Of a stretch of 64,000 nucleotides of DNA, positions 41,442 through 60,983 are shown in pieces (the stretch's first letter is position 1; each line of letters begins with the position of its first letter). The position numbers and the translations under genes were made by a program. This stretch comes from a phage. Below the pieces are notes generated by a model, which had not been told where the DNA came from, ran no database searches, and was given only the letters and a program-made list of their open reading frames with translations. The DNA is taken from NCBI GenBank assembly GCA_018175075.1, contig GCA_018175075.1_4100.1; one strand, 5' to 3'.

Positions 41442-41461
41442 CCACCAGCACAAGCTGGTGG
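41442..41461. repeat. inverted Chi-octamer hairpin
   Basis: CCACCAGC-ACAA-GCTGGTGG. Confidence 0.5.
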
Positions 41462-41587
41462 ATTCCCTCTAACAGTATTCAGTACTACATGATGGTCTTC
41501 ATCCTCCTAGGGTAACATAGTGAGGGCTATGATGGCAGTACTGAATACTCCCTTTCAAAAGATAGATCTATGGTATAGTACTGACGG

Positions 41588-41775
41588 ATTTTGGGCGTAG
41601 TTACCCTGGATGGATTTTGGGCGTAGATATGTCTAGCCCTCCAGAAGTCTGGAAGTAAAGATGGCTATCCATCTAGACGGCTAAACGGCTAGATTTCTGG
41701 ATGGCTGGATGGCTAGACGTTTGGACGGCTAAACGGCTAGATGGTTACACGTCTGGAAGTATAGACGGCTAAATC
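41588..41775. repeat. iteron-like direct repeats
   Basis: ATTTTGGGCGTAG x2; GACGGCTAAACGGCTAGAT x2 (41676-41694, 41724-41742); GTCTGGAAGTA x2; reiterated GGCTA/GATGG units. Confidence 0.5.
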
Positions 41776-41994
41776 AAAATTTTATTTTGTTTTTTCCAAT
41801 AGTTCCCCTACCGCGTGGGGATAGTTTCCCCGCAGTATCTGGTGTTAGATTTTTCTGAATCTGGAATCATTATCTTATAAACTGGGGGCAATGTCAACGG
41901 CCTGGACGGATATTTTTAAAAATTTTTTCAGTACTGAATTTTGGGCGTAACTATGCACCCGGTGGGCTGGAGTCTTTCTCGACTTGATGGAACT

Positions 41995-42022
41995 ATTATA
42001 CAGTACTGGAAAAATAAAGCAA
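41995..42022 (-). promoter_or_regulatory. minus-strand promoter TTGCTT/16/TATAAT
   Basis: read as reverse complement. Confidence 0.35.
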
Positions 42023-42209
42023 TACCCTGGATGAAAAAAGTTTTAATTAATTTGCTTGCCATCCTGGGCCGGACTATGGTACTATAATTCAGTACTGAGA
42101 AAGTGCGTTAACCTGCTAGGGTGCGGGAGTGTATCCTTTTTTTATATCTTGAATTTTGGGCGTAATTCCGCACCCTCTGGGGTTTCCGCTTTCTCGCGTC
42201 TATGTAGTA

Positions 42210-42237
42210 ATTATACGCTTTTTCAGGATCAAGTCAA
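42210..42237 (-). promoter_or_regulatory. minus-strand promoter TTGACT/16/TATAAT
   Basis: read as reverse complement. Confidence 0.35.
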
Positions 42238-42390
42238 TACCTAAAAACAAATAATTGAAAATAATTTAACGCGTTTAAACGGCCCGTAACGCCCTGGAAT
42301 GATTAGAATGGTGCAAATGTATAGCTTAGGTGTATTAATGCGTTAGAATGCGTCTGAGGCCGTTTTATGGGGTGTAGTAGTGATTTGGTT

Positions 42391-42480
42391 GATTCAGTAC
42401 TGAATAATAGTACTCCTATATAGAAAGATAGTTCCCCTGGATTGATTCAGTACTGAATAATAGTACTCCTATATAGAAAG
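42391..42480. repeat. tandem direct repeat, 37-bp unit at 53-bp period
   Basis: GATTCAGTACTGAATAATAGTACTCCTATATAGAAAG at 42391-42427 and 42444-42480. Confidence 0.6.
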
Positions 42481-42512
42481 AAAACTATTTTAAAAGTACA
42501 TGTAGAAAGTAC

Positions 42513-42571
42513 TTGCACCGTACTGATAAAAGCGTATAATGTTTTACATCGAGAGCGGGAACACTTCCCGC
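42513..42571 (+). promoter_or_regulatory. A-type promoter/stem-loop cassette
   Basis: TTGCAC/16/TATAAT + GCGGGAA-CAC-TTCCCGC. Confidence 0.55.
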
Positions 42572-42586
42572 TACACTTTAAAAGAG

Positions 42587-42958
42587 ATGAAAACGATGGC
42601 GACTCAAATCAATAAAATCATGCTTAACCTGGTAAACTTCCGCGATGAGATGAAAGGTCTTCCGGCTGAAACTGTAAAAATTCACATTGCAGCTTATCGG
42701 GAACTTATTGCAATGTTGCCGCTTAAGCGTGAACAATACGCCGCTACTTTGATGCTGGATTCAATGATCCATGTAATGATCTCAAATGATTTAACGATGG
42801 TTTATCAGTACATGGGAGAAAATTTCGCGGTGTGTAGTAAGCCAGTACCAGGGATGGCAACTACTGAGGAATTGCACGGTTTAAATTTAAAGCAAGATGC
42901 ATGGGATAATATGCCTCGTTTCCTGGTATGGGCTGACAGTGGCAAAATTTACAAATAA
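42587..42958 (+). CDS. hypothetical protein
   Basis: ATG 42587 after the stem-loop; track start 42539 is the ATG inside the -10 box. Confidence 0.55.
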   Translation: MKTMATQINKIMLNLVNFRDEMKGLPAETVKIHIAAYRELIAMLPLKREQYAATLMLDSMIHVMISNDLTMVYQYMGENFAVCSKPVPGMATTEELHGLNLKQDAWDNMPRFLVWADSGKIYK

Positions 42959-42972
42959 GTTTAATAAAGTAC

Positions 42973-43031
42973 TTGCAAACTATGTTTAATGGCGTATAAT
43001 GTTTTACATCAGGTGGGGAATAGTTCCCCAC
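42973..43031 (+). promoter_or_regulatory. A-type promoter/stem-loop cassette
   Basis: TTGCAA/16/TATAAT + GGGGAA-TAG-TTCCCC. Confidence 0.55.
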
Positions 43032-43051
43032 TATATAAGAGGATTAAAAAA

Positions 43052-43291
43052 ATGGCTAAATCAAAAATGTTCTTAGGTCACAAAAACAAAACTCATTGGA
43101 ATGTAAGCCTGTGGATTAATAACGATGAGGGATTGTATCGGTTGGCCCTGGATTTTATTAACGACAACACTAATCGCAATGATGCGGCCCGTCATATGAT
43201 GTTATTTTTAGAACAGACTGGACAAGATAAAACACCGGACGGATTCAAATATAGCACTACTGCGATCCGTGCGGCGATGGTTGGAATGTAA
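43052..43291 (+). CDS. hypothetical protein (paralog of 45092 gene)
   Basis: AAGAGGA RBS; shared ..GHKNKTHWNVSLWINN..TPDGFKYSTTAIRAAMVGM. Confidence 0.6.
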   Translation: MAKSKMFLGHKNKTHWNVSLWINNDEGLYRLALDFINDNTNRNDAARHMMLFLEQTGQDKTPDGFKYSTTAIRAAMVGM

Positions 43292-43381
43292 TAGAATAGA
43301 ATTTATTTAAAGTACTATCGCAAAAAATGATAGTACTTTATAATAGTGTTTTATTCATACACCAACGATAAGGGCAACAGC

Positions 43382-43645
43382 ATGAATATTAAGTATTTTG
43401 CGACGCGTGAACAAGCTCGGATCGCTGCACGCCAGGACGGGGCAACGTTTAAAGATATGGGCGTACAATCGGAACGTGGTAAACGTTGGGCCATTGTAAA
43501 GCGTAGTACCGCCAGATCATTACAGTACTGGTTAGCGGCCTTAAAAAGTCCCGATAGTGTATCGCGTCGAGTGGTAGAAATAAAGCTCGACCGAAAGGGC
43601 AACCGCGTGACCGTGTACCGTACTAAAAAGATTGCAGTACTATAA
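43382..43645 (+). CDS. hypothetical protein (paralog of 56658 gene)
   Basis: AAGGG RBS; shared KYFATREQARIAAR..DRKGNRVTVY. Confidence 0.55.
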   Translation: MNIKYFATREQARIAARQDGATFKDMGVQSERGKRWAIVKRSTARSLQYWLAALKSPDSVSRRVVEIKLDRKGNRVTVYRTKKIAVL

Positions 43646-43653
43646 AAAAGTAC

Positions 43654-43711
43654 TTGCAAACTCTGTTTAATGGCGTATAATGTTTTACATCGAGAGCGGG
43701 AACACTTCCCG
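43654..43711 (+). promoter_or_regulatory. A-type promoter/stem-loop cassette
   Basis: TTGCAA/16/TATAAT + GCGGGAACACTTCCCGC. Confidence 0.55.
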
Positions 43712-43733
43712 CCTATAACCTGGAGTAATAAAA

Positions 43734-43964
43734 ATGACTAATATGTATATGACTGAAGTTAAAACCGTAAAAGATACTACCACAAATAAAGTTACTTACT
43801 TACAGCGGATCTGTGGTGTATGGCAACGTATCAGCAAATCAAAGTACTATAAATTAACATCATATGCAAACCGTTCTGATTCATTCAGTACTGAAATAAA
43901 AGGTAATAAAGTACACCAATACGGCACTTATTATTATTACAGCCTGGACGCGATTGCAGTATAA
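43734..43964 (+). CDS. hypothetical protein
   Basis: 76 aa, GGAG RBS. Confidence 0.55.
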   Translation: MTNMYMTEVKTVKDTTTNKVTYLQRICGVWQRISKSKYYKLTSYANRSDSFSTEIKGNKVHQYGTYYYYSLDAIAV

Positions 43965-43994
43965 GCAGTTTACAAATCTTTACAATTGCCGGTA

Positions 43995-44023
43995 TTGACT
44001 TATTTTGTCAGTACTGGCATAAT
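43995..44023 (+). promoter_or_regulatory. sigma70-like promoter TTGACT/17/CATAAT with no ORF downstream
   Basis: faces minus promoter 44139-44167 across an inverted-repeat element. Confidence 0.4.
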
Positions 44024-44039
44024 GTATTCATTGGCAGAT

Positions 44040-44135
44040 AAGCCGTAGCCCATAGGGTGCGGGAGTGTATCTATAGAAAAATTAGTTTAGTATAGTTACA
44101 ATTGTGCACCCGGTGGGTTAGCTGTTGTCATGGGG
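44040..44135. repeat. GGGTGC inverted-repeat element
   Basis: CCCATAGGGTGC .. GCACCCGGTGGG arms about 50 nt apart; related copies at ~41950, 42110-42180, 46520, 51365, 53020, 55365, 58625, 60890. Confidence 0.5.
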
Positions 44136-44138
44136 TAT

Positions 44139-44167
44139 ATTATGCCAGTACTGGATAGTGCTGTCAA
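44139..44167 (-). promoter_or_regulatory. minus-strand promoter TTGACA/17/CATAAT
   Basis: read as reverse complement; convergent with 43995 promoter. Confidence 0.4.
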
Positions 44168-44211
44168 TACTTTTTTAATATTCAGTACTGAAAACTATTT
44201 TTAAAAAGTAC

Positions 44212-44357
44212 TTGCAAACTATGTTTAAAGGCGTATAATGTTTTACATCAGGACGGGGAACGAAATAAGTAACTTCCCGTTAAGTAGCCCAGGAGTAAGG
44301 CACACGAAAAACTCCCCTGATAAAATAGTTTGACAATTGTTTTTAAAAGCGTATAAT
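44212..44357 (+). promoter_or_regulatory. tandem promoters flanking a conserved leader (copy 1)
   Basis: TTGCAA 44212/TATAAT 44234; leader hairpin; second TTGACA 44330/TATAAT 44352; homologous block at 55428-55571. Confidence 0.5.
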
Positions 44358-44389
44358 ACTTACATCAACTACTGAATGAGGGTTACAAA

Positions 44390-45001
44390 ATGAAAACTAT
44401 CACTACTACTACTTTCGTTATGGATTTTTCTGAATTGAACGCAGAACAAAAAACGTCAGCTATCGAACTGGTTCGGGAACGTGAAAAAAACTCAAACGAC
44501 AATTATTTTTCTGAAAGTGAAATTGAATACTATAAAGAAACAGTACTACCGGAATATGGCATTAATGACGCTGAAATACAATTCAGTGGCTTTTGGTCCC
44601 AGGGTGACGGTGCATCAATCAGTACTGACCACGTTGACGCAGTGAAGTTTTTACGCAAGGTAAGAGCATTAACTAAGTATCGCTCAATCCGTCACCTGCT
44701 GAATGAAGATGATTTGGCGATGAGTGTAAAGCGTTCGCACTCCCACTACTCGCATGAGAATACTGTAAGCGGGTACATTGAATCGGCTTACACTGATTTA
44801 ACCGCAAAACAAGAAACGTTAGTTAATGAGCTTGAGGAACTACTCACTGAAACTATTCGTGAATTGTCCCGCAAGTTGTACCGTGATTTAGAGAATGCAT
44901 ATGAGGATCAATTCACCACTGAAAACATTACGGCACTGATTGAGGGTAACGAATATCAATTCAATGTTATTGATGGCGTAGTAGAATCAATCGAATATTA
45001 A
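44390..45001 (+). CDS. hypothetical acidic protein
   Basis: 203 aa, GAGGG RBS. Confidence 0.65.
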   Translation: MKTITTTTFVMDFSELNAEQKTSAIELVREREKNSNDNYFSESEIEYYKETVLPEYGINDAEIQFSGFWSQGDGASISTDHVDAVKFLRKVRALTKYRSIRHLLNEDDLAMSVKRSHSHYSHENTVSGYIESAYTDLTAKQETLVNELEELLTETIRELSRKLYRDLENAYEDQFTTENITALIEGNEYQFNVIDGVVESIEY

Positions 45002-45013
45002 TTTAAAAAGTAC

Positions 45014-45073
45014 TTGCAAACTAAGTTTAAAAGCGTATAATACTTTATATCGAGGCGGGGAATGGTTCCCCGC
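45014..45073 (+). promoter_or_regulatory. A-type promoter/stem-loop cassette
   Basis: TTGCAA/16/TATAAT + GCGGGGAA-TGG-TTCCCCGC. Confidence 0.55.
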
Positions 45074-45091
45074 TCAAACGAGGATTTAAAA

Positions 45092-45331
45092 ATGGCTAGT
45101 ACTAAAACTTACAACGGTCACAAAAACAAAACTCATTGGAATGTAAGCCTTTGGATTAATAACGGTGAGTCATTGTATCGGCTTGCTCAAAGTTGCATCG
45201 CACAAAGTAGAACTAAAGATATTGCTGCGGAATGTATGTACCGCAGATTAAAAGCCAACGGTACTACTACAACGCCGGACGGCTTTAAGTATAGCACTAC
45301 TGCGATCCGTGCTGCAATGGTTGGAATGTAA
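45092..45331 (+). CDS. hypothetical protein (paralog of 43052 gene)
   Basis: 79 aa, GAGGA RBS. Confidence 0.6.
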   Translation: MASTKTYNGHKNKTHWNVSLWINNGESLYRLAQSCIAQSRTKDIAAECMYRRLKANGTTTTPDGFKYSTTAIRAAMVGM

Positions 45332-45350
45332 TATTCAGTACTGAGATAAT

Positions 45351-45370
45351 GGCGGGGAATGGTTCCCGCC
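45351..45370 (+). promoter_or_regulatory. isolated cassette-type stem-loop
   Basis: GGCGGGGAA-TGG-TTCCCGCC with no clear -35. Confidence 0.35.
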
Positions 45371-45388
45371 TTTACTGAGGGTTATCTA

Positions 45389-45676
45389 ATGAGTAAAGTA
45401 ATAAAGTACAATGTGTTAAGTAAATCATTGTCTATCAGTGAATGCACCGATGGTTTTTGGATGTACGATGAAACGCGTGGCATGAATTTAGCTATGCGTG
45501 CAAAAACTGCTGAGGCGGCGTATATTCAAGCACTGGAATACTACCAGGAACGTTTAAAGGAAGTAGAAGAAGATTATAAAAGCCTCAAAGCGAAAGTAGA
45601 TCATTTCGTCGGTCAATTCGTGGAAGACAACGACGAGGACGGGCACTACTGCGACCGTTGCGGATCTTACAGTTAA
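45389..45676 (+). CDS. hypothetical protein
   Basis: ATG 45389 with GAGGG RBS; C-terminal CDRC. Confidence 0.5.
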   Translation: MSKVIKYNVLSKSLSISECTDGFWMYDETRGMNLAMRAKTAEAAYIQALEYYQERLKEVEEDYKSLKAKVDHFVGQFVEDNDEDGHYCDRCGSYS

Positions 45677-45693
45677 GTACTAAGGATTATATA

Positions 45694-45906
45694 ATGAGTG
45701 ATTTAATTGAACGTATCAAAGAGCTTGAAGAAAAAGAATTGCAGTTGATCGGGTTACGGAATAAAGTATTCCATGATTTAGGTGGCTTTATTAATGCCTG
45801 GGATAGTGGCGATCCTGATGCGTTACCTGCTAACCGCCAGGCGATGATCAATGATGTGCGTGGTGTCTTTGAGTATGTTTTAAAAGTACTAGACACTAAG
45901 CAATAA
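45694..45906 (+). CDS. hypothetical protein
   Basis: ATG 45694 with AAGGA RBS. Confidence 0.5.
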   Translation: MSDLIERIKELEEKELQLIGLRNKVFHDLGGFINAWDSGDPDALPANRQAMINDVRGVFEYVLKVLDTKQ

Positions 45907-45967
45907 AGGCGTATAATACTTTATATTGGTACTGACAAACATTATAAGCGATTCAGGAGCTTTAATC

Positions 45968-46153
45968 ATGACAACATTATCTGAGGTTATCCGCGTTCAA
46001 GCTGCAAAGGCTGGAATGACTGTTATCAATGTAGGGATCAAGATTGAGATCTCCCCTAACGAGTTGCAAGGGATTCCCGATCCTACTAGCTGGGATCGTG
46101 CTGGGCGAATGATGCGTAATGCTTCATTACTGGACGGTACAAAATTTAATTAA
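45968..46153 (+). CDS. hypothetical protein
   Basis: 61 aa; CAGGAG RBS. Confidence 0.45.
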   Translation: MTTLSEVIRVQAAKAGMTVINVGIKIEISPNELQGIPDPTSWDRAGRMMRNASLLDGTKFN

Positions 46154-46160
46154 AAAGTAC

Positions 46161-46219
46161 TTGCAATTAGTTTTTAGTACTGTATAATGGTTTACATCAA
46201 AGGGAGAAATGGTTCTCCC
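46161..46219 (+). promoter_or_regulatory. A-type promoter/stem-loop cassette
   Basis: TTGCAA/16/TATAAT + GGGAGAAATGGTTCTCCC. Confidence 0.55.
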
Positions 46220-46238
46220 TGGTAATGAGGAAAATAAA

Positions 46239-46460
46239 ATGGCTAATATCACTACTCTTTCCCAACTGGAAGCACTGGTTAAATCTATGCGGGAACATGC
46301 CGACAAAATCGGCGTACAAGATCCAGCCGTTTGCTTCTGCGACGAAATGAATGATGATACACTGGTAATAGCAGAAGTCCAGGACGTTTCTAACTATTCC
46401 TCGCGTTACACTGGCGGCGTAGCAAATAAAGGTGACTTCTGTTTATACCTTACAAAATAA
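46239..46460 (+). CDS. hypothetical protein
   Basis: 73 aa, GAGGA RBS. Confidence 0.55.
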   Translation: MANITTLSQLEALVKSMREHADKIGVQDPAVCFCDEMNDDTLVIAEVQDVSNYSSRYTGGVANKGDFCLYLTK

Positions 46461-46465
46461 CAACG

Positions 46466-46496
46466 CGGGGAGATAATAACTCCCCGTTACTTTTTC
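46466..46496. terminator. intrinsic terminator hairpin, T-rich on both sides
   Basis: CGGGGAGATAATAACTCCCCG then TTACTTTTTC. Confidence 0.55.
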
Positions 46497-46566
46497 AGTA
46501 CTGAATCATTTAATAGACGGATCTCGGCACCCGGTGGGTTAGTGACTGTTTCGTCTTGATGTAGTA

Positions 46567-46595
46567 ATTATGCCAGTACTGGATGCACTTGTCAA
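46567..46595 (-). promoter_or_regulatory. minus-strand promoter TTGACA/17/CATAAT
   Basis: read as reverse complement; would give a ~90-nt antisense RNA ending at hairpin 46466-46486. Confidence 0.35.
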
Positions 46596-46628
46596 CAACT
46601 ATTTTTCAAATACTTTTTATTAAAATAC

Positions 46629-46682
46629 TTGCAATTAGTTTTTAAACGCGTATAATGTTTTGCATAGGGGGAGCGGTTCCCC
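46629..46682 (+). promoter_or_regulatory. A-type promoter/stem-loop cassette
   Basis: TTGCAA/16/TATAAT + GGGGGAGCGGTTCCCC. Confidence 0.5.
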
Positions 46683-46703
46683 TGGTAACTAAGGAATAAT
46701 AAA

Positions 46704-46940
46704 ATGCTTGAACAAATCAAATCAACGTCTGCGAATGTAACGGGAACGGTAGCACACTTTACTAGTGATGAATCGCGGGGCGTTCCCTATTGTGCTGTAC
46801 ATGTAAACACTGAGGGTAACTACTGGTTTACGGTTTACGGATCATATTCATTTGGACGGCCTGGACATCAAAAAATTCTGGATAAAGTACAGCCAACGGG
46901 TAAAAATATCACTGCTGAAATGTTTTATAAAAAATCATAA
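46704..46940 (+). CDS. hypothetical protein
   Basis: 78 aa, AAGGA RBS. Confidence 0.55.
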   Translation: MLEQIKSTSANVTGTVAHFTSDESRGVPYCAVHVNTEGNYWFTVYGSYSFGRPGHQKILDKVQPTGKNITAEMFYKKS

Positions 46941-46945
46941 AGTAC

Positions 46946-47005
46946 TTGATAATAGTTTTTAGTACTGTATAATATTTTACATCGCAAGGGGGGAGCGGTT
47001 CCCCC
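46946..47005 (+). promoter_or_regulatory. A-type promoter/stem-loop cassette
   Basis: TTGATA/16/TATAAT + GGGGGGAGCGGTTCCCCC. Confidence 0.5.
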
Positions 47006-47025
47006 TGGTAACTAAGGATAATCAA

Positions 47026-47325
47026 ATGAAAATTGCAATCATCGCCCTGGCTTTATCTGTTTCCTCTTTCGCTGTTAATGCGTCGTTAGATGTAAGTAGT
47101 GAAAAATTCATTCAGTGCACTGTAGCGATGACCAATGAAAGTACTGGCGAGATTGTTTTAAAGGATTTAGAGATCCAGCCAGAAGCATTTAAAAACGGGC
47201 CGTTCCATGAAGAAGACGAAAAAGGTAGCACGACAATTTATTACGATGCAAGTACTAAACGCGGTTCGGTCACTGTTATGGATACTGAGAAAGTAACGCA
47301 TTCCGGCGTTATTAATTGCCGTTGA
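47026..47325 (+). CDS. secreted protein (signal peptide)
   Basis: MKIAIIALALSVSSFAVNASLD; AAGGA RBS. Confidence 0.6.
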   Translation: MKIAIIALALSVSSFAVNASLDVSSEKFIQCTVAMTNESTGEIVLKDLEIQPEAFKNGPFHEEDEKGSTTIYYDASTKRGSVTVMDTEKVTHSGVINCR

Positions 47326-47346
47326 TAGATACTACGGGGTAACATC

Positions 47347-47577
47347 ATGACTAAGCGAATTGTTTTACTTAACGAAAGCAGTACTACACAACTACTTAAC
47401 GCCGTGCATTATGATATTGAAACGAGCGTTAATCTTATCAGTACTGTAGTACTGTTGGACACTGGAAAGGTCGCCAATGATAAAGCGATTGCAGGTATAT
47501 TAACGGATCTTGAGCCTGGTAGCAGTGCACCAATAACGTTAAATGGTAAAGTGTTTAATATTTTACTCACTGATTAA
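47347..47577 (+). CDS. hypothetical protein
   Basis: 76 aa, GGGG RBS. Confidence 0.5.
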   Translation: MTKRIVLLNESSTTQLLNAVHYDIETSVNLISTVVLLDTGKVANDKAIAGILTDLEPGSSAPITLNGKVFNILLTD

Positions 47578-48314: not shown

Positions 48315-48341
48315 AGCCCACTTATACAGTGGGCTTTTTTG
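48315..48341 (+). terminator. intrinsic terminator
   Basis: AGCCCAC-TTATACA-GTGGGCT + T6. Confidence 0.7.
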
Positions 48342-48494
48342 TGTTTATCGTTTACCAGGCCACCAGCACCGCCTAGAAACGATTCTAACGTATTAAACTG
48401 TTTATCTGATGCATTGCCCTAGCTGGTGGCGTTAAAGTCGTTAGAATGCGATTGAGTGCGTTTAAAGTATTTTGCAAAAAGTAATAAAAAGTAC

Positions 48495-51300: not shown

Positions 51301-51310
51301 ATGAAAAAAG

Positions 51311-51336
51311 TGGTTGACTTCGGTCAGCCATTTTGC
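51311..51336 (+). terminator. intrinsic terminator (UUCG loop)
   Basis: GGTTGAC-TTCG-GTCAGCC + TTTT. Confidence 0.65.
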
Positions 51337-52666: not shown

Positions 52667-52695
52667 GCCCACTGGTTAACGCTGGTGGGCTTTAA
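52667..52695 (+). terminator. terminator-like hairpin containing Chi octamer
   Basis: AGCCCACTGG..CTGGTGGGCT then TTTAATT. Confidence 0.5.
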
Positions 52696-53130: not shown

Positions 53131-53291
53131 AGGCAATATACGCAGTTGAATTTATATAGACAGTACAAAGGCGTTACTATCCGTGGTAATGCTGGTGGAT
53201 ATGTAGTATCATGTGGTTTGAATAAGATTAGCACTAGTAGTATTATTGTAGCATTACAGTACTATAGTATTTTTATAATGAGGTTAAAATA

Positions 53292-54030: not shown

Positions 54031-54048
54031 TACTAAGAGGAAATGAAA

Positions 54049-54237
54049 ATGGAAAACTTATCAAGTATTTTAGTACAAGATGATTTCGGTAATCCTGGAA
54101 GTGCTATCATAGTTCGGGGCAATAAAGCAACGTTTGTTATTGCTGGTGGACCCGTACAGCGTAGCATTAAAAATAATGCTGTTACCATTAATAATGTACG
54201 CTATCGCTTAGATAAAGAATTAATTCATAAACTGTAA
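54049..54237 (+). CDS. hypothetical protein
   Basis: ATG 54049 is 9 nt after GAGG (54043 also possible). Confidence 0.5.
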   Translation: MENLSSILVQDDFGNPGSAIIVRGNKATFVIAGGPVQRSIKNNAVTINNVRYRLDKELIHKL

Positions 54238-54884: not shown

Positions 54885-54891
54885 AAAGTAC

Positions 54892-54949
54892 TTGCACAGT
54901 ACTGAATAAAGTGTATAATGTTTTATATCGGAAGGGGAATAGTTCCCCT
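54892..54949 (+). promoter_or_regulatory. A-type promoter/stem-loop cassette
   Basis: TTGCAC/16/TATAAT + AGGGGAATAGTTCCCCT. Confidence 0.55.
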
Positions 54950-54970
54950 CCCAACAAAGAGGAAAGTATA

Positions 54971-55144
54971 ATGATCCAAGTAGAATTATCAGTACTGAAA
55001 GATCTGTTTTATCGGTTAGGTACTAATGGCGAGTATCCTAAAAGTGATACCGCAAAACTTTTTGTATCACTCGACTTATGGCAACGCGAACAATTAGTAA
55101 TGTCCTGGCGTAAAGGTAAAGCAGATCGCGAGGTGAAAGCATGA
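54971..55144 (+). CDS. small hypothetical protein
   Basis: 57 aa from ATG 54971 with AAGAGGA RBS. Confidence 0.45.
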   Translation: MIQVELSVLKDLFYRLGTNGEYPKSDTAKLFVSLDLWQREQLVMSWRKGKADREVKA

Positions 55145-55290
55145 AAGAATTCTTATTCGAAGTAGTGTTTCAAGGTGTCGGTAGTAACCAACTGATTCGA
55201 TCAAGTGGTTACAATGTCAACCAGGCATGGAATAACATTAAACAAATGTACCCGAACGCTATCACCTATCGCAACCCGAAAGAAGTTTAA
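55141..55290 (+). CDS. small hypothetical protein
   Basis: 49-aa ORF, ATGA-coupled to upstream gene. Confidence 0.4.
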   Translation: MKEFLFEVVFQGVGSNQLIRSSGYNVNQAWNNIKQMYPNAITYRNPKEV

Positions 55291-55301
55291 AAATAATTGA
55301 A

Positions 55302-55338
55302 AAAGGGATTGACTCCGGTCAGTCCCTTTGCTATTATA
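55302..55338 (+). terminator. intrinsic terminator with embedded promoter hexamers
   Basis: GGGATTGAC-TCCG-GTCAGTCCC + TTTG; TTGACT 55309 / TATTAT 55333. Confidence 0.6.
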
Positions 55339-55427
55339 TACGCATAGAAACAAATCAGCCCACCGGGTGCATAAATGTATCTATTGTTTGCTGGTGGCTA
55401 GTACTGAAAACTATTTTAAAAAAGTAC

Positions 55428-55571
55428 TTGCATTGTACTTAGAATAAAGTATAATGTTTTACATCAGGACGGGGAACGAAACAAGTAACCCCGTTAAGTA
55501 GTCCAGGAGTAAGACATACGAAAAACTCCCCTGATAAAATAGTTTGACAATAGAAAGTAAACGAGTATAAT
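55428..55571 (+). promoter_or_regulatory. tandem promoters flanking a conserved leader (copy 2)
   Basis: TTGCAT 55428/TATAAT 55450; hairpin ACGGGG..CCCCGT; second TTGACA 55544/TATAAT 55566. Confidence 0.5.
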
Positions 55572-55604
55572 ACTCACATCAACCACTGATAAGGAAACAT
55601 AAAA

Positions 55605-55880
55605 ATGCGGATTCTACTGACAGCTAACGAAATCGAACAAGTACTGACTACTAACCTGGAAGACTGGAAACGTGAAGCAGATATCCAGGCGGTTCAACAG
55701 CTTAACGATGAGTTAACGCCGGATGACTTAAGCAAGATTGTAGATCCTCAATTCTACGAAGATATCCACGACACCGCGTTAAGCGTCGAGGATGTACTAG
55801 ATAAGCACTACATTGATATTGATTTGCAGGTTTACGGTCGTAAAAACTTTATCACTATTCACGACATTTACAATAATTAA
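55605..55880 (+). CDS. hypothetical acidic protein
   Basis: 91 aa, AAGGAAA RBS. Confidence 0.6.
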   Translation: MRILLTANEIEQVLTTNLEDWKREADIQAVQQLNDELTPDDLSKIVDPQFYEDIHDTALSVEDVLDKHYIDIDLQVYGRKNFITIHDIYNN

Positions 55881-55883
55881 GTA

Positions 55884-55945
55884 TTGACAAAGTATCTTAG
55901 TACTGTATAATAGTTTACATCGAGTGAGGGGAAACGGTTCCCCTC
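55884..55945 (+). promoter_or_regulatory. C-type promoter/stem-loop cassette
   Basis: TTGACA/16/TATAAT + GAGGGGAAACGGTTCCCCTC. Confidence 0.55.
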
Positions 55946-55968
55946 CTAACAAAGAGAGAGAAATAAAA

Positions 55969-56151
55969 ATGGCTAAGTGCACTATCTGCAAGAAAGAAAT
56001 AGTATTAGTTCCAAGTGCCCGTGAACGTGCCGCTCGGTTCGGTGGCAAAGCGTCAGACTATACAAAAATGTTTACTACCCATGCAGCTTGCCAGGTAGCA
56101 AAACGTTCACAAGAAAGCGTAGAATTAATGCGTAAACTTTCCAAAAAATAA
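55969..56151 (+). CDS. small Cys-containing protein
   Basis: 60 aa from ATG 55969; CTIC..HAAC. Confidence 0.5.
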   Translation: MAKCTICKKEIVLVPSARERAARFGGKASDYTKMFTTHAACQVAKRSQESVELMRKLSKK

Positions 56152-56154
56152 GTA

Positions 56155-56215
56155 TTGACAAAGTATCTTAGTACTGTATAATAGTTTACATCAAGTGAGG
56201 GGAATGGTTCCCCTC
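56155..56215 (+). promoter_or_regulatory. C-type promoter/stem-loop cassette
   Basis: near-identical to 55884 cassette. Confidence 0.55.
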
Positions 56216-56238
56216 CTAACTAAAAGAGAGAAATAAAA

Positions 56239-56562
56239 ATGGCTATGATCCTTGCCCAGAAAGTAGAATTGAAAATTGTAACCTCATTTGACATTAACGT
56301 TAATCGGTGGACTGATTCACACGGCAATACTTACCACTCTTGCTACGTGTCTGCGTTAATTGGCGACCGCTGGGAAGACCTGGGACATGAAACCTTTACA
56401 TACGGTTACGGCACACAAGGCGAATACACGGGCTTGGAGATCATTAAAGAAACCGTTATAGGTTTCAACCCGAAAGAAAAAGTTATTCACCAAATCGAAA
56501 AAGAGATTAACAAAGAAATAACAGTTCGATACAACGATGTAAAACGTAAGAAAGACATGTAA
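56239..56562 (+). CDS. hypothetical protein (paralog of 49417 gene)
   Basis: 107 aa. Confidence 0.6.
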   Translation: MAMILAQKVELKIVTSFDINVNRWTDSHGNTYHSCYVSALIGDRWEDLGHETFTYGYGTQGEYTGLEIIKETVIGFNPKEKVIHQIEKEINKEITVRYNDVKRKKDM

Positions 56563-56584
56563 TAGAATCCATTTAAAGTACTAT

Positions 56585-56613
56585 TTGACATTGCCCAGAT
56601 AGTACTTTATAAT
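56585..56613 (+). promoter_or_regulatory. sigma70-like promoter TTGACA/17/TATAAT
   Basis: hexamers read directly. Confidence 0.5.
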
Positions 56614-56657
56614 AGACTCTAACTTGTAGTACTAACTTAACTAATAGGATGTATACC

Positions 56658-57053
56658 ATGATTACTAAATTCTACGCTACCCGTGAAGCTGCCCGTATTG
56701 TTGCACGCGAGGAAGGAGCAGCATTTAAAGACATGGGCAAAGATGCACCGAAAGGCCAACGCTGGGCCGTACAGTTCAAAGAGATCTCTGATATTGTGAA
56801 TTCACCTGAGCCAGTACTAACAGCAGCAGAACTAAAACGAGCGGATATGCTGGCGGCAATACTTGACGCACAAGATGAGTTTATCGCTGGTTCTGATATC
56901 AAAGTACAGGTAAACCACACCGCATGGACTCACGCGGATCACCTGGCAAACCTTAAGCGTCCAAGTGAACTGATTCGCAACCAGAAAGAGATCCGACATG
57001 ATCGTAAGGGTAATCGTGTAACAGTATACAGTAAACGCCGCCAGGTTATCTAA
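56658..57053 (+). CDS. hypothetical protein (paralog of 43382 gene)
   Basis: ATG 56658 with AGGA RBS (56649 also possible). Confidence 0.55.
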   Translation: MITKFYATREAARIVAREEGAAFKDMGKDAPKGQRWAVQFKEISDIVNSPEPVLTAAELKRADMLAAILDAQDEFIAGSDIKVQVNHTAWTHADHLANLKRPSELIRNQKEIRHDRKGNRVTVYSKRRQVI

Positions 57054-57076
57054 TAACTTGCAGTACTAACAACACG

Positions 57077-57100
57077 GCGGGATCAGTTCCCGCCTTTTTT
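57077..57100 (+). terminator. intrinsic terminator
   Basis: GGCGGGA-TCAG-TTCCCGCC + T6. Confidence 0.7.
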
Positions 57101-57114
57101 ATAGGACAAACAAA

Positions 57115-57369
57115 ATGATTAAGGTTCAACTATATAAAGATAACATCTTACGGGTACACTATAAAGCACCTCAGAGAATCATCACAAAGGCCGTACAGCT
57201 TGCTAATGAGTTTATTAATGGTAACCTATTACCTAGGAAGTTAAGCAACGGGAAACTGCGTGTAATCGACGTGGACACTAACAACAGGATAGTAATCGAG
57301 AACACAGGAAAGATAAACCTTTATGAGCATCAACAATACAATAAGAAAATAAAACTAATATCACGTTGA
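57115..57369 (+). CDS. hypothetical protein
   Basis: 84 aa, AGGA RBS. Confidence 0.55.
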   Translation: MIKVQLYKDNILRVHYKAPQRIITKAVQLANEFINGNLLPRKLSNGKLRVIDVDTNNRIVIENTGKINLYEHQQYNKKIKLISR

Positions 57370-57394
57370 CAGTACTCAAATGTTTTAGTACTAT
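57366..57394 (+). promoter_or_regulatory. sigma70-like promoter TTGACA/17/TACTAT (duplicated at 57643)
   Basis: ~55-bp block repeated before two adjacent genes. Confidence 0.45.
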
Positions 57395-57422
57395 GTACAC
57401 ATACCAACACGGGAGAAACAAA

Positions 57423-57641
57423 ATGAAATTATCTAAAATCGAAAAGAAAACTATTGATGAAGCAGTTAAGCACGGTTATACCTTTCGTAATGATTCACAT
57501 TTTACCAATTTTCAACAAGGGTATCGTACTATTAAAAAACTAATTGACAAAGGTTTATTAGTTGAAGTCAATAACGGTAACGGTATCGAGTATCAACCAA
57601 CACAAGACGCATTTTATTTTAAGAAATATAATATTATCTAA
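57423..57641 (+). CDS. hypothetical protein
   Basis: 72 aa from ATG 57423 with GGGAGA RBS. Confidence 0.55.
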   Translation: MKLSKIEKKTIDEAVKHGYTFRNDSHFTNFQQGYRTIKKLIDKGLLVEVNNGNGIEYQPTQDAFYFKKYNII

Positions 57642-57642
57642 T

Positions 57643-57670
57643 TGACAGTACTCAAATGTTTTAGTACTAT
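57643..57670 (+). promoter_or_regulatory. sigma70-like promoter TTGACA/16/TACTAT
   Basis: duplicate of 57366 block. Confidence 0.45.
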
Positions 57671-57699
57671 ATGTACATACCAACACGGGGAGAAACAAA

Positions 57700-57942
57700 A
57701 TGATTACTTTAGAAAAACGTATCAAAGAAACTACATCGCTGGTGGAACTGTTAACAGTACTGAAATGTAAAACAACACCATTCAGCACGCCGGACTTTAT
57801 TAATATGGTTGATGTTAATGGTCGCTATCGTATCACGGTCGTGAATGGTGCGGCGAAAGTATTCAGTACTAAAAACACTAAGGAAGTGATCCACGCCGTT
57901 AATGTTAAAAAAGTAGTTGCCATTGATAGTAAAGTACTGTAA
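57700..57942 (+). CDS. hypothetical protein
   Basis: 80 aa, GGGGAGA RBS. Confidence 0.55.
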   Translation: MITLEKRIKETTSLVELLTVLKCKTTPFSTPDFINMVDVNGRYRITVVNGAAKVFSTKNTKEVIHAVNVKKVVAIDSKVL

Positions 57943-57973
57943 GATAGTTTCATTAACTCAAGGAGTAAATGCA

Positions 57974-58558
57974 ATGCGTAATTATACTAAATTCATCCGT
58001 ACACTGTCAGAAATGGAAACCAACAAAGAGATCCTTTCAGCTTGTCGGTTAGCTGGCCTGGAGATCATCGGGGCGGGATCTTCCCGTATAGTTTTCGCTT
58101 TAAATGATCGGTTAGTGATTAAGGTCGCGAATTGTGATGCGGGTGTAGAACAAAATGAAACTGAATGTAAGGTATGGAATTTTTTAGACTATGACCGCCC
58201 TCAGTTGAAACAGTACTTTGCAAAGGTGCATATGCATTTATGCGATCCTGATAATATGTTTATCGTTATGGATCGGTTGAGTACTGCAAGCAAAGGCAGT
58301 GTGAAGCACGTTAACGCGTGCAATGAATTAAAGTACAATATTAAACGTAATGCAATCGAACGCCAGCACCGCTTTGCTGATGCACTACAACACGTTGATG
58401 ATACATTATCAACACTAACGATAAGAGATATCAGAAAACAGAATATCGGCCAGGATCGTAATGGACTTATTAAAGTACTTGATTACGGTTTAACCCGCAA
58501 TATCTGGAATCAGTACTATAAAAAGCGTGATGTAGCAGCAAGTAAGGTAACACGATAA
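57974..58558 (+). CDS. Ser/Thr protein-kinase-like protein
   Basis: IGAGSSRIV Gly loop, VIKVA lysine, IRDIRKQNIG catalytic loop, KVLDYG DFG-like; AAGGAG RBS. Confidence 0.6.
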   Translation: MRNYTKFIRTLSEMETNKEILSACRLAGLEIIGAGSSRIVFALNDRLVIKVANCDAGVEQNETECKVWNFLDYDRPQLKQYFAKVHMHLCDPDNMFIVMDRLSTASKGSVKHVNACNELKYNIKRNAIERQHRFADALQHVDDTLSTLTIRDIRKQNIGQDRNGLIKVLDYGLTRNIWNQYYKKRDVAASKVTR

Positions 58559-58570
58559 AAAAGATTAAAA

Positions 58571-58606
58571 AAGGGATTGACTCCGGTCAGTCCCTTTGCT
58601 ATTATA
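58571..58606 (+). terminator. intrinsic terminator with embedded promoter hexamers
   Basis: GGGATTGAC-TCCG-GTCAGTCCC + TTTG, then TATTAT. Confidence 0.6.
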
Positions 58607-58698
58607 TATTCATTGAGAGATAACTCACTGACCCATAGGGTGCATAAGTGTATCTATTATATAAGTATTCAGTACTGGAAACTATTTTTAAAAAGTAC

Positions 58699-58760
58699 TT
58701 GCATTGTACTTAGAATCAAGTATAATGTTTTATATCGAGAGGGGGAAATGGTTCTCCCTG
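58699..58760 (+). promoter_or_regulatory. A-type promoter/stem-loop cassette
   Basis: TTGCAT/16/TATAAT + GGGGGAAATGGTTCTCCC. Confidence 0.55.
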
Positions 58761-58780
58761 GTACATTAAGGAATAAAATC

Positions 58781-59002
58781 ATGACTACAATGACTTGCAT
58801 TCACGCTTCAAACCTGCTTAATGATGCGGCCTTTAATGTTGATTCAGAATATCAATGTTATCGGGATGAAAATAAAAAAGTTTTTGTAGTTGATAATAAT
58901 GGTTTCCATATTGAATTACAATCCGGCTTCACTGGTGTTGATGGTAAATCAGTATGGGGCGTACAGGATGATAAAGGTACATATCATTTTAAACGTAATT
59001 AA
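58781..59002 (+). CDS. hypothetical protein
   Basis: 73 aa from ATG 58781 with AAGGAA RBS; long track ORF upstream is cassette read-through. Confidence 0.55.
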   Translation: MTTMTCIHASNLLNDAAFNVDSEYQCYRDENKKVFVVDNNGFHIELQSGFTGVDGKSVWGVQDDKGTYHFKRN

Positions 59003-59005
59003 GTA

Positions 59006-59064
59006 TTGACAAAGTATATCAGTACTGTATAATAGTTTACATCAAGGGGAGAATAGTTCTCCCC
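59006..59064 (+). promoter_or_regulatory. C-type promoter/stem-loop cassette
   Basis: TTGACA/16/TATAAT + GGGGAGAATAGTTCTCCCC. Confidence 0.55.
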
Positions 59065-59088
59065 ACACCAATAAAAGGAAACAAAATT

Positions 59089-59361
59089 ATGTCCAGCTAC
59101 TCCGCTACTATGATCATTAAAGATATGAACGGTAATCCTACTTCTGCTGGTGGATCATTTGGAAACATTAATTTAGATGGTCGGTTATCCATGCAATCAG
59201 CCATTGATGCAGCTAAAGAAGTTTTTAAGAATGAATGTACTGTAAGCAAGCTGGATTATATGGGATTCGCTATCGAGAAAACTAATCGTTTTGTGAACTA
59301 CAAAAAGCCTATGATGATTGATACTAACCTGAAAGCTAACGAAGTGGAATACTTATTATGA
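59089..59361 (+). CDS. hypothetical protein
   Basis: 90 aa, AAAGGAA RBS. Confidence 0.6.
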   Translation: MSSYSATMIIKDMNGNPTSAGGSFGNINLDGRLSMQSAIDAAKEVFKNECTVSKLDYMGFAIEKTNRFVNYKKPMMIDTNLKANEVEYLL

Positions 59362-59549
59362 CAGTAGAAGAAGTTAAAAAAGTACTGGCAGTACTACGCT
59401 ATCATAATCATTGTAAGGTGAAGAATGATCCTGATTATCTTGATTCATCCCTGGAGGAAGACACCTTAAACGCGATAAGCTATATGCAAACATTAGCAAA
59501 GCGTATGACCGAAAAGAATAGGCCGGACTATATAGGAAATAAAATTTAA
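59358..59549 (+). CDS. hypothetical protein
   Basis: 63 aa, ATGA-coupled. Confidence 0.5.
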   Translation: MTVEEVKKVLAVLRYHNHCKVKNDPDYLDSSLEEDTLNAISYMQTLAKRMTEKNRPDYIGNKI

Positions 59550-59556
59550 AAAGTAC

Positions 59557-59618
59557 TTGCATTGTAGTTAGATTAACGTATAATGTTTTATATCGAGAGG
59601 GGGAAATGGTTTCCCCTC
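59557..59618 (+). promoter_or_regulatory. A-type promoter/stem-loop cassette
   Basis: TTGCAT/16/TATAAT + GAGGGGGAAA-TGG-TTTCCCCTC. Confidence 0.55.
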
Positions 59619-59636
59619 AAGTCCAGGAGATACACC

Positions 59637-59900
59637 ATGAACACTATCGAAATCACTATCAATGCACACGTATACGACAACGTAGTACTGCAAACTACTA
59701 TGACCGCTAATGATACCAGTACTTTGCGGAATACTGTTATTAGTGCCGTATGTGCTGCAATCGGTGATGTCGCCCTGGAAAATGCAAAACACGTAAACGA
59801 TGGTTTCACTATGTGCAAACGTGATAACGCAAAACATATCATCGTGGAAGGTTACGGCGGTGTAGAATTTAATGTTTATATGAAAAAAGTACTTGCATAA
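59637..59900 (+). CDS. hypothetical protein
   Basis: 87 aa from ATG 59637 with CAGGAG RBS. Confidence 0.55.
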   Translation: MNTIEITINAHVYDNVVLQTTMTANDTSTLRNTVISAVCAAIGDVALENAKHVNDGFTMCKRDNAKHIIVEGYGGVEFNVYMKKVLA

Positions 59901-59949
59901 TAACTAAAACAAAGTATAATGTTTTGCATAGGGGGAGATATCCTCCCCC
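59893..59949 (+). promoter_or_regulatory. A-type promoter/stem-loop cassette
   Basis: TTGCAT/16/TATAAT + GGGGGAGATATCCTCCCCC; -35 overlaps upstream stop. Confidence 0.55.
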
Positions 59950-59967
59950 ACTAAAAGGAGTAATAAA

Positions 59968-60192
59968 ATGGCTAACTTTGATGAACTGATGCGGGAAGTA
60001 GCTACCCTGGCAGAAGAGAAGAAATCATTCGATTCTATCTATAACACCGCTCACCGTGATTCAGTACTGGCATGTACTCAGGATCAAAAAGATGAACTAA
60101 TCGCCACCTATCATGAAGCATGGAAGTACTACCGCCAATGGGAGAAAGAAGAAAGCGAGTCTACCATCAACGGCATCAATAATCTAATCTAA
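59968..60192 (+). CDS. hypothetical protein
   Basis: 74 aa, AAGGAG RBS. Confidence 0.6.
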   Translation: MANFDELMREVATLAEEKKSFDSIYNTAHRDSVLACTQDQKDELIATYHEAWKYYRQWEKEESESTINGINNLI

Positions 60193-60211
60193 AAGTTTTA
60201 TTTCAGTACTA

Positions 60212-60240
60212 TTGACATAGCTTGATAGTACTGATGTAAT
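60212..60240 (+). promoter_or_regulatory. B-type promoter cassette
   Basis: TTGACA/17/TGTAAT. Confidence 0.5.
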
Positions 60241-60268
60241 AACTTTACTAACTACAAGGGGAAACATC

Positions 60269-60526
60269 ATGGAACAATTCACACAATATCGGGTAAATCC
60301 TCAAGCTATGGCCTACGTAGAAGACCATAAAACGTTACCAGTACTGCAACCAGTTAAAGGCCATATCTATCGTGGCCTTGCCTGGGATACGGCCCAGGAT
60401 GGATATAAAACCGTCGCAGTGGGGATGTATTGCGGGAATGGTGAATGGTTTGATCCTAACAATCCGATTGCACTTGACAGTACTGAAAAAATGAAATGGG
60501 CCGACTACATCGAAGATATTTCATAA
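60269..60526 (+). CDS. hypothetical protein
   Basis: 85 aa, AAGGGGAA RBS. Confidence 0.6.
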   Translation: MEQFTQYRVNPQAMAYVEDHKTLPVLQPVKGHIYRGLAWDTAQDGYKTVAVGMYCGNGEWFDPNNPIALDSTEKMKWADYIEDIS

Positions 60527-60533
60527 AAACTAT

Positions 60534-60594
60534 TTGACAGTACTAACCAGTAATGTATAATGTTTTACATAGAGCGGGGGAATAGTTCTCCCGC
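60534..60594 (+). promoter_or_regulatory. C-type promoter/stem-loop cassette
   Basis: TTGACA/16/TATAAT + GCGGGGGAATAGTTCTCCCGC. Confidence 0.55.
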
Positions 60595-60616
60595 CAATAG
60601 TTTGGAGTAAAACATT

Positions 60617-60817
60617 ATGTCTATCGCTATCGCCCTGGTTGAAGTACTGAAAGAAGCTAAAGCCAACCTTATCGATGTACAGATTAAGGAATTGCAAAAC
60701 GGCTTAATCGGCTGTACTTGTACCGCTGGCGGTGCGGCAGACTATCGAGAACACGAATCACTCGAATCACTGGTTCGGTATCTTACCATGATCGTTGATG
60801 ATTGGAGAATCATCTAA
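60617..60817 (+). CDS. hypothetical protein
   Basis: 66 aa, GGAG RBS. Confidence 0.55.
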   Translation: MSIAIALVEVLKEAKANLIDVQIKELQNGLIGCTCTAGGAADYREHESLESLVRYLTMIVDDWRII

Positions 60818-60835
60818 CAAAAAAAGAATAAAAAA

Positions 60836-60870
60836 AGGGATTGACTCCGGTCAGTCCCTTTGCTATTATA
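60836..60870 (+). terminator. intrinsic terminator with embedded promoter hexamers
   Basis: GGGATTGAC-TCCG-GTCAGTCCC + TTTG, then TATTAT. Confidence 0.6.
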
Positions 60871-60983
60871 TACGCATAGACAAAAACTAGCCCACAGGGT
60901 GCATAAGTGTATCCAAAATATATAGTTAATAACGGTGAGTAACTATCTGCTGGTGGAGTGAAAACTATTAATAAAAAAAAGTA

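Follow-up and report, generated by a model that had tools for sequence, protein, structure and literature searches.

The direct terminal repeat of an Asteriusvirus genome

The window analysed here is a 64-kb stretch of phage DNA (contig GCA_018175075.1_4100.1), and our subject is a cluster of the octamer GCTGGTGG, the Chi site of Escherichia coli, which occupies a long terminal repeat within it. The window derives from a jumbo coliphage of the genus Asteriusvirus (121Q, PBECO4, SP27, fEgEco12 and others; ~350 kb), with SP27 as its best match over 8 kb (96.9% identity). An earlier examination of the letters of this DNA, hereafter the sequence-only reading, had proposed an enteric host, in agreement with the E. 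coli jumbo phages of this genus that match the window at ~97% identity; judging from relatives with up to 97% identity, the phage of the window itself probably also infects E. coli.

The genome of fEgEco12 bears a 20,993-bp direct terminal repeat (DTR), which was determined with PhageTerm and confirmed by restriction digestion in a report whose authors expect circularisation via the repeats and make no mention of Chi (PMC13070987). Repeats of comparable kind are recorded for Sharanji (20,668 bp; PMC11895373) and annotated in the record of vB_Ec-M-J (21,525 bp). Window position 40866 aligns exactly with position 1 of fEgEco12, several other Asteriusvirus records start at its equivalent, and window position 62319 corresponds to the last base of the fEgEco12 repeat. 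Because the fEgEco12 borders align exactly at these two positions, we placed the DTR equivalent of the window at 40866-62319 (21,454 bp); the sequences of both boundaries are conserved. The window reads straight through the left border, and its termini are therefore assigned by homology; in the source assembly, either the repeat was collapsed or the junction with the right-hand copy is displayed.

The DTR equivalent holds ~55 small plus-strand genes, all rightward, separated by spacers of ~90 bp and each forming a separate unit with its own sigma-70 promoter; approximately 31% of the repeat is non-coding. Its G+C content is slightly higher (38.6%) and it contains many repeats. At 62319 the architecture switches from spaced single genes to overlapping, operon-style genes without spacers. 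Between 44000 and 62400 we found eleven perfect-consensus sigma-70 promoters (TTGACA, a spacer of 16-17 nt, TATAAT), all on the plus strand, and overall there is about one promoter per small gene in this interval. In PA5oct, a Pseudomonas relative, early infection sees strong transcription of the DTR genes (PMC7318152). The left end of the repeat is occupied by a leader of ~1.7 kb (40866-42538) with no convincing gene, the sole candidate being a doubtful open reading frame (ORF) of 44 amino acids (aa) at 41953-42087, and the first annotated gene of fEgEco12 starts at 1689. This leader carries a palindromic pair of Chi sites and 12 copies of a second palindrome, CAGTACTG.

Chi sites are enriched in the terminal repeat and conserved

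Exact matches to GCTGGTGG number 15 on the two strands of the window, compared with 0.66 +/- 0.83 in dinucleotide-preserving shuffles, in which the largest count was 4 and none reached 15. The count of the octamer is thus far above chance, as the sequence-only reading had held. Plus-strand copies start at 15234, 41454, 48422, 52681, 53191, 54142, 55390, 57738, 59146 and 60949, and minus-strand copies at 29285, 29543, 29798, 41442 and 48360. Every position in the sequence-only reading proved right, on either strand, but its list lacked two plus-strand copies (54142 and 57738) and three minus-strand copies (29285, 29543 and 29798). A single glycine-rich ORF on the minus strand (29227-29964) contains the latter three, the octamer being read there as Ala-Gly-Gly, and they are therefore attributed to codon usage; the copy at 15234 lies within coding sequence. 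The glycine-rich ORF (245 aa) accompanies six paralogous ORFs of ~375-400 aa on the minus strand of 27981-36116, whose homologues in fEgEco12 bear the annotation chromosome condensation regulator or DNA condensation protein.

Eleven of the 15 sites (9 plus-strand, 2 minus-strand) fall within 41442-60956, inside the DTR equivalent. The nine plus-strand sites contrast with 0.12-0.48 expected there under Markov models of order 0-4, an expectation that rises to 1.5 under an order-5 model, and the two minus-strand sites with 0.04-0.11 (order 0-4). For both strands of the 21.5-kb repeat together, 11 sites were observed against ~0.2-0.6 expected, and the excess per strand is ~20-60 fold. The plus strand of the DTR equivalent contains the heptamer GCTGGTG nine times, always within Chi, and the heptamer CTGGTGG occurs ten times in the DTR equivalent, nine of them within Chi, while the 24 single-mismatch variants of Chi together account for five occurrences. 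Since the sub-words are found inside Chi and the one-mismatch variants are rare, the enrichment is specific to the complete octamer.

The excess ends with the repeat. Neither of the plus-strand runs of tiny ORFs that flank the DTR (36200-40600 and from 62387) contains a Chi site. The upstream run comprises ~20 tightly packed plus-strand ORFs of 60-85 aa directly before the DTR, a similar run follows it, and both form multigene arrays of tiny proteins without known function. We assembled the whole genome of a relative, ECO103 4-12-1 (352 kb), and counted 28 Chi sites, 11 of which lie in the DTR equivalent, that is, in 6.0% of the total length (binomial P = 3e-7). In the other 331 kb there are 7 plus-strand and 10 minus-strand sites against ~4.7 and 4.5 expected (order-3/4 models), near expectation and with no strand bias. 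The fEgEco12 DTR, whose right-hand copy is identical to the left-hand copy, has 10 plus-strand and 2 minus-strand Chi sites, and the next 29 kb, which encodes similar small rightward early genes, has none. The Chi cluster fills the ~21.5-kb DTR and ends at its borders.

Among the Asteriusvirus genomes compared, orthologous Chi sites are intact in every genome that has the region. Of 88 Chi columns none is variable, compared with 160 of 2,213 flanking columns (7.2%), for a P value of ~1e-3 that is rough since the genomes are related. The palindromic site at 41442 is conserved in six Asteriusvirus genomes, and the site at 53191 is present in fEgEco12 and TH47, the region being absent from ECO103. 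The window also contains a near-Chi, GCTGGCGG, on the plus strand at 60725-60732, whose orthologous position is a true Chi in fEgEco12 (19402) and ECO103; in the alignment this difference appears as the gain or loss of one Chi site. A scan of IMG/VR for the palindrome CCACCAGCNNNNGCTGGTGG was tried as a conservation test and discarded; of its 46 contigs only 121Q was a relative, and since the others were unrelated and mostly GC-rich, the scan was uninformative on conservation.

The enrichment recurs in other genera. Klebsiella phage fENko-Kae01, from a different genus-level cluster, has 12 plus-strand and 2 minus-strand Chi sites in its 19,736-bp DTR and one on each strand in the 25 kb that follows; it aligns to the window solely in promoter-type repeats and in two short (~40-50-bp) blocks of the left leader. 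Pectobacterium phage CBB (Mimasvirus), whose DTR is essentially unalignable with the window, has 7 plus-strand and 2 minus-strand sites in its 22,456-bp repeat and 2 and 1, respectively, in the next 22.5 kb. When the window repeat and the DTRs of fENko-Kae01 and CBB were compared for the 44 octamers with at least five top-strand copies in all three, Chi had the highest minimum ratio of observed to expected counts, at 19-22 fold, and promoter-associated words containing AGTACT reached at most ~10 fold. By contrast, E. coli Chi did not occur in the 50 kb of PA5oct (MK797984) that take in its 39-kb DTR (1-39080), and this phage offers a useful negative control for the DTR enrichment.

Orientation and surroundings of the Chi sites

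A top-strand Chi is active for RecBCD entering from the right (PMC12315714; bioRxiv 10.1101/2021.07.08.451572). The nine plus-strand sites of the DTR equivalent face the right terminus, at distances of 1.4, 3.2, 4.6, 6.9, 8.2, 9.1, 9.6, 13.9 and 20.9 kb, with two minus-strand sites pointing to the left terminus from 0.58 and 7.5 kb away, so that the orientation with respect to the genome ends is correct for both sets. With the repeat predicted by homology at both ends of the genome, and with plus-strand sites facing right and minus-strand sites facing left, both ends would be covered. In both Asteriusvirus and fENko-Kae01, the termini have a correctly oriented Chi no more than 0.4-1.5 kb away, as does the right terminus of CBB. 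If recognition succeeds at 20-40% of encounters with a single Chi, as published estimates have it, nine sites would stop 87-99% of enzymes and two sites 36-64%.

The plus strand holds 9 of the 11 sites of the window repeat and 28 of the 34 pooled over the three genera, a ratio of 28:6 that is unlike 1:1. However, composition calculated with Chi masked predicts that 70-87% of chance Chi sites would fall on the G-rich, coding plus strand, which the observed 82% fits (P = 0.54), and both orientations are enriched by a similar factor in the DTR. The sequence-only reading had taken the bias as pointing to protection from one end; as composition alone yields the same bias, we dropped it as evidence of function.

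The surroundings of the eleven sites are varied. The first two, at 41442-41449 on the minus strand (576 bp from the left DTR boundary and facing the left terminus) and at 41454-41461 on the plus strand, are the left and right arms of a 20-bp palindrome with a perfect 8-bp stem and a 4-nt loop (-15.7 kcal/mol, z = -3.75). Counted from the left terminus, no site precedes this palindrome, and in the right repeat none lies between it and the inner border; the 41454 copy is the innermost Chi of that repeat. The inverted pair lies at offsets 576/588 in the window repeat and 578/590 in fEgEco12, and fENko-Kae01 has the same arrangement, CCACCAGC-NNNN-GCTGGTGG, at 484/496, ~0.5 kb from its left end, with a different loop and diverged flanks. 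The loop reads ACAA in the window (41450-41453), its reverse complement TTGT in fEgEco12 (586-589) and 121Q, and TTAA in fENko-Kae01; on these sequences, the double-Chi palindrome may have flipped as a unit between strains.

Two further intergenic sites lie 54 nt apart, one at 48360-48367 on the minus strand (7,494 bp from the left boundary, facing the left end and just after a terminator-like hairpin at 48315-48335) and the other at 48422-48429 on the plus strand, facing the right end. The sequence-only reading had Chi copies pairing into hairpins at both 41442 and 48360. The first of these holds up, whereas the pair at 48360/48422 folds no better than shuffles (z = -1.4). The plus-strand site at 52681-52688 forms the 3' arm of a terminator-like hairpin, AGCCCACTGGTTAACGCTGGTGGGCT (-19.1 kcal/mol, z = -5.2), and the same CTGGTTAACGCTGGTGG arrangement is found at 19354 of fENko-Kae01.

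The other six sites, all on the plus strand, lie in spacers and in short ORFs. The copy at 53191-53198 sits in a spacer or in a doubtful 48-aa ORF (annotated g029 in fEgEco12), that at 54142-54149 inside a 64-aa ORF (54043-54237), that at 57738-57745 near the 5' end of an 80-aa ORF (57700-57942) and that at 59146-59153 inside a 90-aa ORF (59089-59361). The site at 55390-55397 is part of a single copy of a repeated hairpin-promoter module, in which an A-rich element and a promoter follow shortly downstream. The outermost site facing the right end, at 60949-60956, is intergenic, upstream of a TTGACA promoter and 1,363 bp from the right boundary; its fEgEco12 counterpart lies 1,361 bp from the physical right terminus. 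With regard to coding status, the sequence-only reading is correct in placing 15234 and 59146 inside ORFs and in calling 41454, 48422, 52681, 55390 and 60949 intergenic, but not for 53191, because of the doubtful ORF. Seven of the 11 sites in the DTR equivalent are non-coding, an excess over the ~31% non-coding share of the repeat (P = 0.026).

Contexts thus range from a leader palindrome and a terminator arm to ORFs, one copy of the module and, for four fENko-Kae01 sites, promoter spacers between the -35 and -10 boxes. No flanking consensus common to the Chi copies was found in the window. Chi therefore looks inserted at whatever places the sequence can vary freely, a pattern in favour of selection acting on the octamer itself.

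Two ways in which Chi might have been carried along by its surroundings were examined and rejected. Membership in a longer repeated intergenic element fails on the missing common flank and on paralogous copies without Chi. An integral place in the hairpin-promoter module fails since two of its four copies (51307 and 58570) lack Chi, reading ATATA--AGTATT where the 55390 copy reads GTTTGCTGGTGGCT, and the copy near 60949 has Chi at another position than the 55390 copy.

The module itself starts at 51307-51334, 55302-55329, 58570-58597 and 60834-60861, each with ~150 bp downstream, and consists of a hairpin with a 12-bp stem, AAAGGGATTGACTCCGGTCAGTCCCTTT, with a TTGACT -35 box in it; downstream come GCTATTATAT and a conserved segment, AGCCCACAGGGTGCATAAGTGTATC. 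It could be a structured promoter or a small RNA, and an Rfam search of the DTR and the module gave no match at the gathering score. The palindrome CAGTACTG is a second repeated feature, with 66 copies in the window against 1.2 expected, 38 of them in the DTR, and it is densest at 40787-42455. Many promoters carry it in their spacer, directly before the -10 box, as in TTGACA...CCAGTACTGGCATAAT, and its TG could there serve as an extended -10 element. Words containing AGTACT are over-represented in the DTRs of fENko-Kae01 and CBB as well.

A proposed role of RecBCD at the genome ends

In E. coli, RecBCD is the chief enzyme for repairing double-strand breaks and also stands in the first line against linear phage DNA. 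Phages are known to answer it with inhibitors (Gam, gp5.9 and Abc2), with the end-capping protein gp2 of T4 and, in some temperate phages that lack a recombinase, with many Chi sites. We consider it fairly probable that the octamers described here are functional Chi sites kept by selection throughout the DTR, and a RecBCD-related role at the ends of a linear genome, which the sequence-only reading had also favoured, is the best explanation of a cluster that fills the DTR. Enrichment, confinement to the DTR, conservation, recurrence in other genera and orientation toward the termini are observations; access of RecBCD to the ends in vivo, recognition of Chi there, and protection or recombination as the selected benefit are inferred.

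The proposed mechanism is as follows. Virion DNA would be linear, with an identical copy of ~21 kb at each end, and after injection host RecBCD may load on a free end and degrade inward. From the right terminus it would meet nine correctly oriented top-strand Chi sites, the first of them 1.4 kb in, and from the left terminus two bottom-strand sites at 0.6 and 7.5 kb. Recognition of Chi would switch the enzyme from degradation to the production of a RecA-coated 3' tail. In a singly infected cell, such a tail would find a homologous partner only within the DTR, in the form of the other repeat copy, and the genome would be spared while the repeats recombine into a circle, a concatemer or a recombination-primed replication fork. 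The confinement of Chi to the DTR would make sense on this model, because only there does the 3' tail have a partner in a singly infected cell.

Several observations weigh against this model. Only two sites are oriented to the left end, and the strand bias provides no independent evidence of an orientation-specific function, because composition predicts the same bias. In CBB the difference between the DTR and its neighbour, 9 versus 3 sites, is modest (P = 0.07), the left-end palindrome is lacking, and the DTR borders come from read depth only. The 39-kb DTR of PA5oct contains the proposed Pseudomonas Chi, GCTGGCGC, only once and in no cluster, and the motif was therefore not seen to track the host in that phage; should host Chi be used by these phages, PA5oct is either an exception or relies on a motif not yet recognised. 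Relatives encode T4-type recombination proteins of their own, UvsX/RecA-like, gp46/47, UvsW and endonuclease VII proteins being reported in papers on such phages (CBB, PMC5259590; Sharanji, PMC11895373); these genes were taken from the papers and not from a sequence search. The family thus breaks the rule of lambdoid phages that many Chi sites go with the absence of a Rec module. Finally, we found no paper in the literature searched that ties Chi or RecBCD to Asteriusvirus or Rak2-like phages.

Shielding without recombination is a serious rival, though in our estimation an unlikely one. Here Chi would only blunt the RecBCD nuclease until phage functions take over, and UvsX and gp46/47 would recombine the DNA; related benefits might be fewer RecBCD fragments for spacer acquisition by CRISPR systems and no inhibitor for guard-type defences to sense. 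Such a role fits relatives that encode their own recombination machinery, as well as correctly oriented Chi sites 0.4-1.5 kb from the termini of Asteriusvirus and fENko-Kae01 and from the right terminus of CBB. A PHROGs screen of 40 DTR ORFs recognised no Gam, Abc2 or gp5.9-like family, which also fits, but with almost no DTR protein of known function, failure to recognise an inhibitor carries little weight; the only ORFs to receive a name matched a DksA-like zinc finger, an acetyltransferase and, weakly, a PHROG labelled DNA ligase. Shielding leaves unexplained both why Chi stops exactly at the DTR border and why nine sites are spread over 21 kb.

It is improbable that the octamer serves as a site or structural element for a factor other than RecBCD, such as a regulator or a component of promoters or terminators, with its identity to Chi a coincidence. 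All sites lie in the early, strongly transcribed DTR, several fENko-Kae01 copies occupy promoter spacers directly upstream of a -10 box, and the copies at 52681 and at fENko-Kae01 19354 form terminator arms, as such an element might. However, the copies share no flank, their placement with respect to promoters, terminators and ORFs varies, four of them are coding, and the octamer is missing from paralogous promoter modules. Regions of early genes immediately beyond the DTR, of the same orientation and composition, contain no Chi, and the exact host Chi is found in three Enterobacterales-infecting genera and is absent from the Pseudomonas relative.

A role in the repair of broken forks, as on the host chromosome, with co-orientation resulting from rightward replication from an origin in the left leader, appears highly improbable. 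The cumulative GC skew has its minimum near 40 kb and the leader is repeat-rich with no convincing gene, but the turn in skew coincides with a switch in gene orientation, composition accounts for the orientation bias, and nothing in the model confines Chi to the DTR, whereas the other 331 kb shows neither excess nor strand bias. That the sites are unselected by-products of base composition, codon usage or the spread of intergenic modules is barely credible: glycine-rich coding explains the minus-strand trio at 29.3-29.8 kb and the DTR is slightly G+C-rich with many repeats, but Markov models up to order 4 yield fewer than 0.5 sites and order 5 yields 1.5 against 9 observed, one-mismatch variants are rare, module paralogues lack Chi, the sites are invariant among genomes whose flanks differ by 7%, and the excess recurs in unalignable DTRs.

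Among the closest precedents for a functional Chi cluster at the genome ends is phage P1, in which a Chi-dense terminal redundancy has been proposed to drive RecBCD/RecA circularisation (bioRxiv 10.1101/2021.07.08.451572; PMC12315714). P1, P7 and D6 resemble the present phage, whose ends are predicted from its relatives, in injecting linear DNA with terminal repeats and in carrying Chi far above expectation, concentrated at the repeats and in both orientations. The logic proposed for P1 is the same, in that RecBCD from either end meets active Chi and the repeats recombine, and its Chi sites are likewise as frequent in non-coding as in coding DNA. P1 differs in being temperate, with a genome of ~95 kb, headful packaging, a variable redundancy of 5-10 kb and Chi over a broad zone, and its need for host RecA and RecBCD is known. 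The present phage, by contrast, is virulent and ~350 kb in size, with fixed 21-kb repeats, a Chi excess that ends at their border and relatives that encode UvsX, gp46/47 and UvsW, and its dependence on RecBCD is hypothetical.

The lambdoid phages LLS and MD8 also carry many Chi sites, toward the right end and mostly as top-strand 5'-GCTGGTGG-3', but they are cos-type temperate phages with no long repeats and no Rec module or RecBCD inhibitor (PMC12315714). Growth of LLS is measurably helped by RecBCD (PMC12315714), whereas such help is presumed for the present phage, whose family has its own recombination genes and whose orientation bias is explained by composition. The E. coli chromosome shares the identical octamer and the same orientation rule for entering RecBCD, yet its Chi sites, at ~1 per 4.6 kb, are evenly distributed, follow coding sequence and codon usage and share the direction of replication; in the present repeat there is ~1 per 2 kb, in AT-rich and mostly non-coding DNA, confined to 6% of the genome. 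T5 has a long exact DTR as well, with early host-takeover genes behind strong host-type promoters (the first-step-transfer DNA, which bears the pre-early genes). Its 10.2-kb repeat (AY543070), the only part counted, contains two top-strand Chi sites (8127 and 8689) and none on the bottom strand, a small number; in the right-hand copy these would lie ~1.5-2.1 kb from the right terminus.

The principle of terminal Chi clustering is known from P1 and LLS, and for the present group it is apparently unreported. The distinguishing features here are that a virulent jumbo phage equipped with a recombinase of its own is involved, that the DTR border is exact and that the double-Chi palindrome is conserved. 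In this virulent 350-kb family, which has recombination genes of its own, the Chi route appears to be taken, and in the terminal repeats alone. The defined ends, sharp border, 11 sites and conserved palindrome make for a clean testable system in which to ask whether incoming DNA is protected by Chi, the repeats are driven to recombine, or both. Our results also suggest that Chi content could help to locate collapsed terminal repeats and to deduce an enteric host in jumbo-phage assemblies.

Extending the proposed role of the sites, we tentatively put forward a broader idea that we regard as possible but somewhat doubtful, in which the Chi-laden repeat is a passive, protein-free RecBCD countermeasure of a virulent jumbo phage that has its own recombinase. 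The phage would mimic the host's signal to stop degrading at both ends, with the palindrome as a two-way stop, and RecBCD would be neutralised without being inhibited. Defences that sense inhibition would then not be triggered, CRISPR adaptation would be starved of end fragments, and the RecA-coated end would be handed to the other repeat to start replication. If this were true, the Chi content of terminal repeats would represent a general, host-specific adaptation of long-DTR phages of the Enterobacterales.

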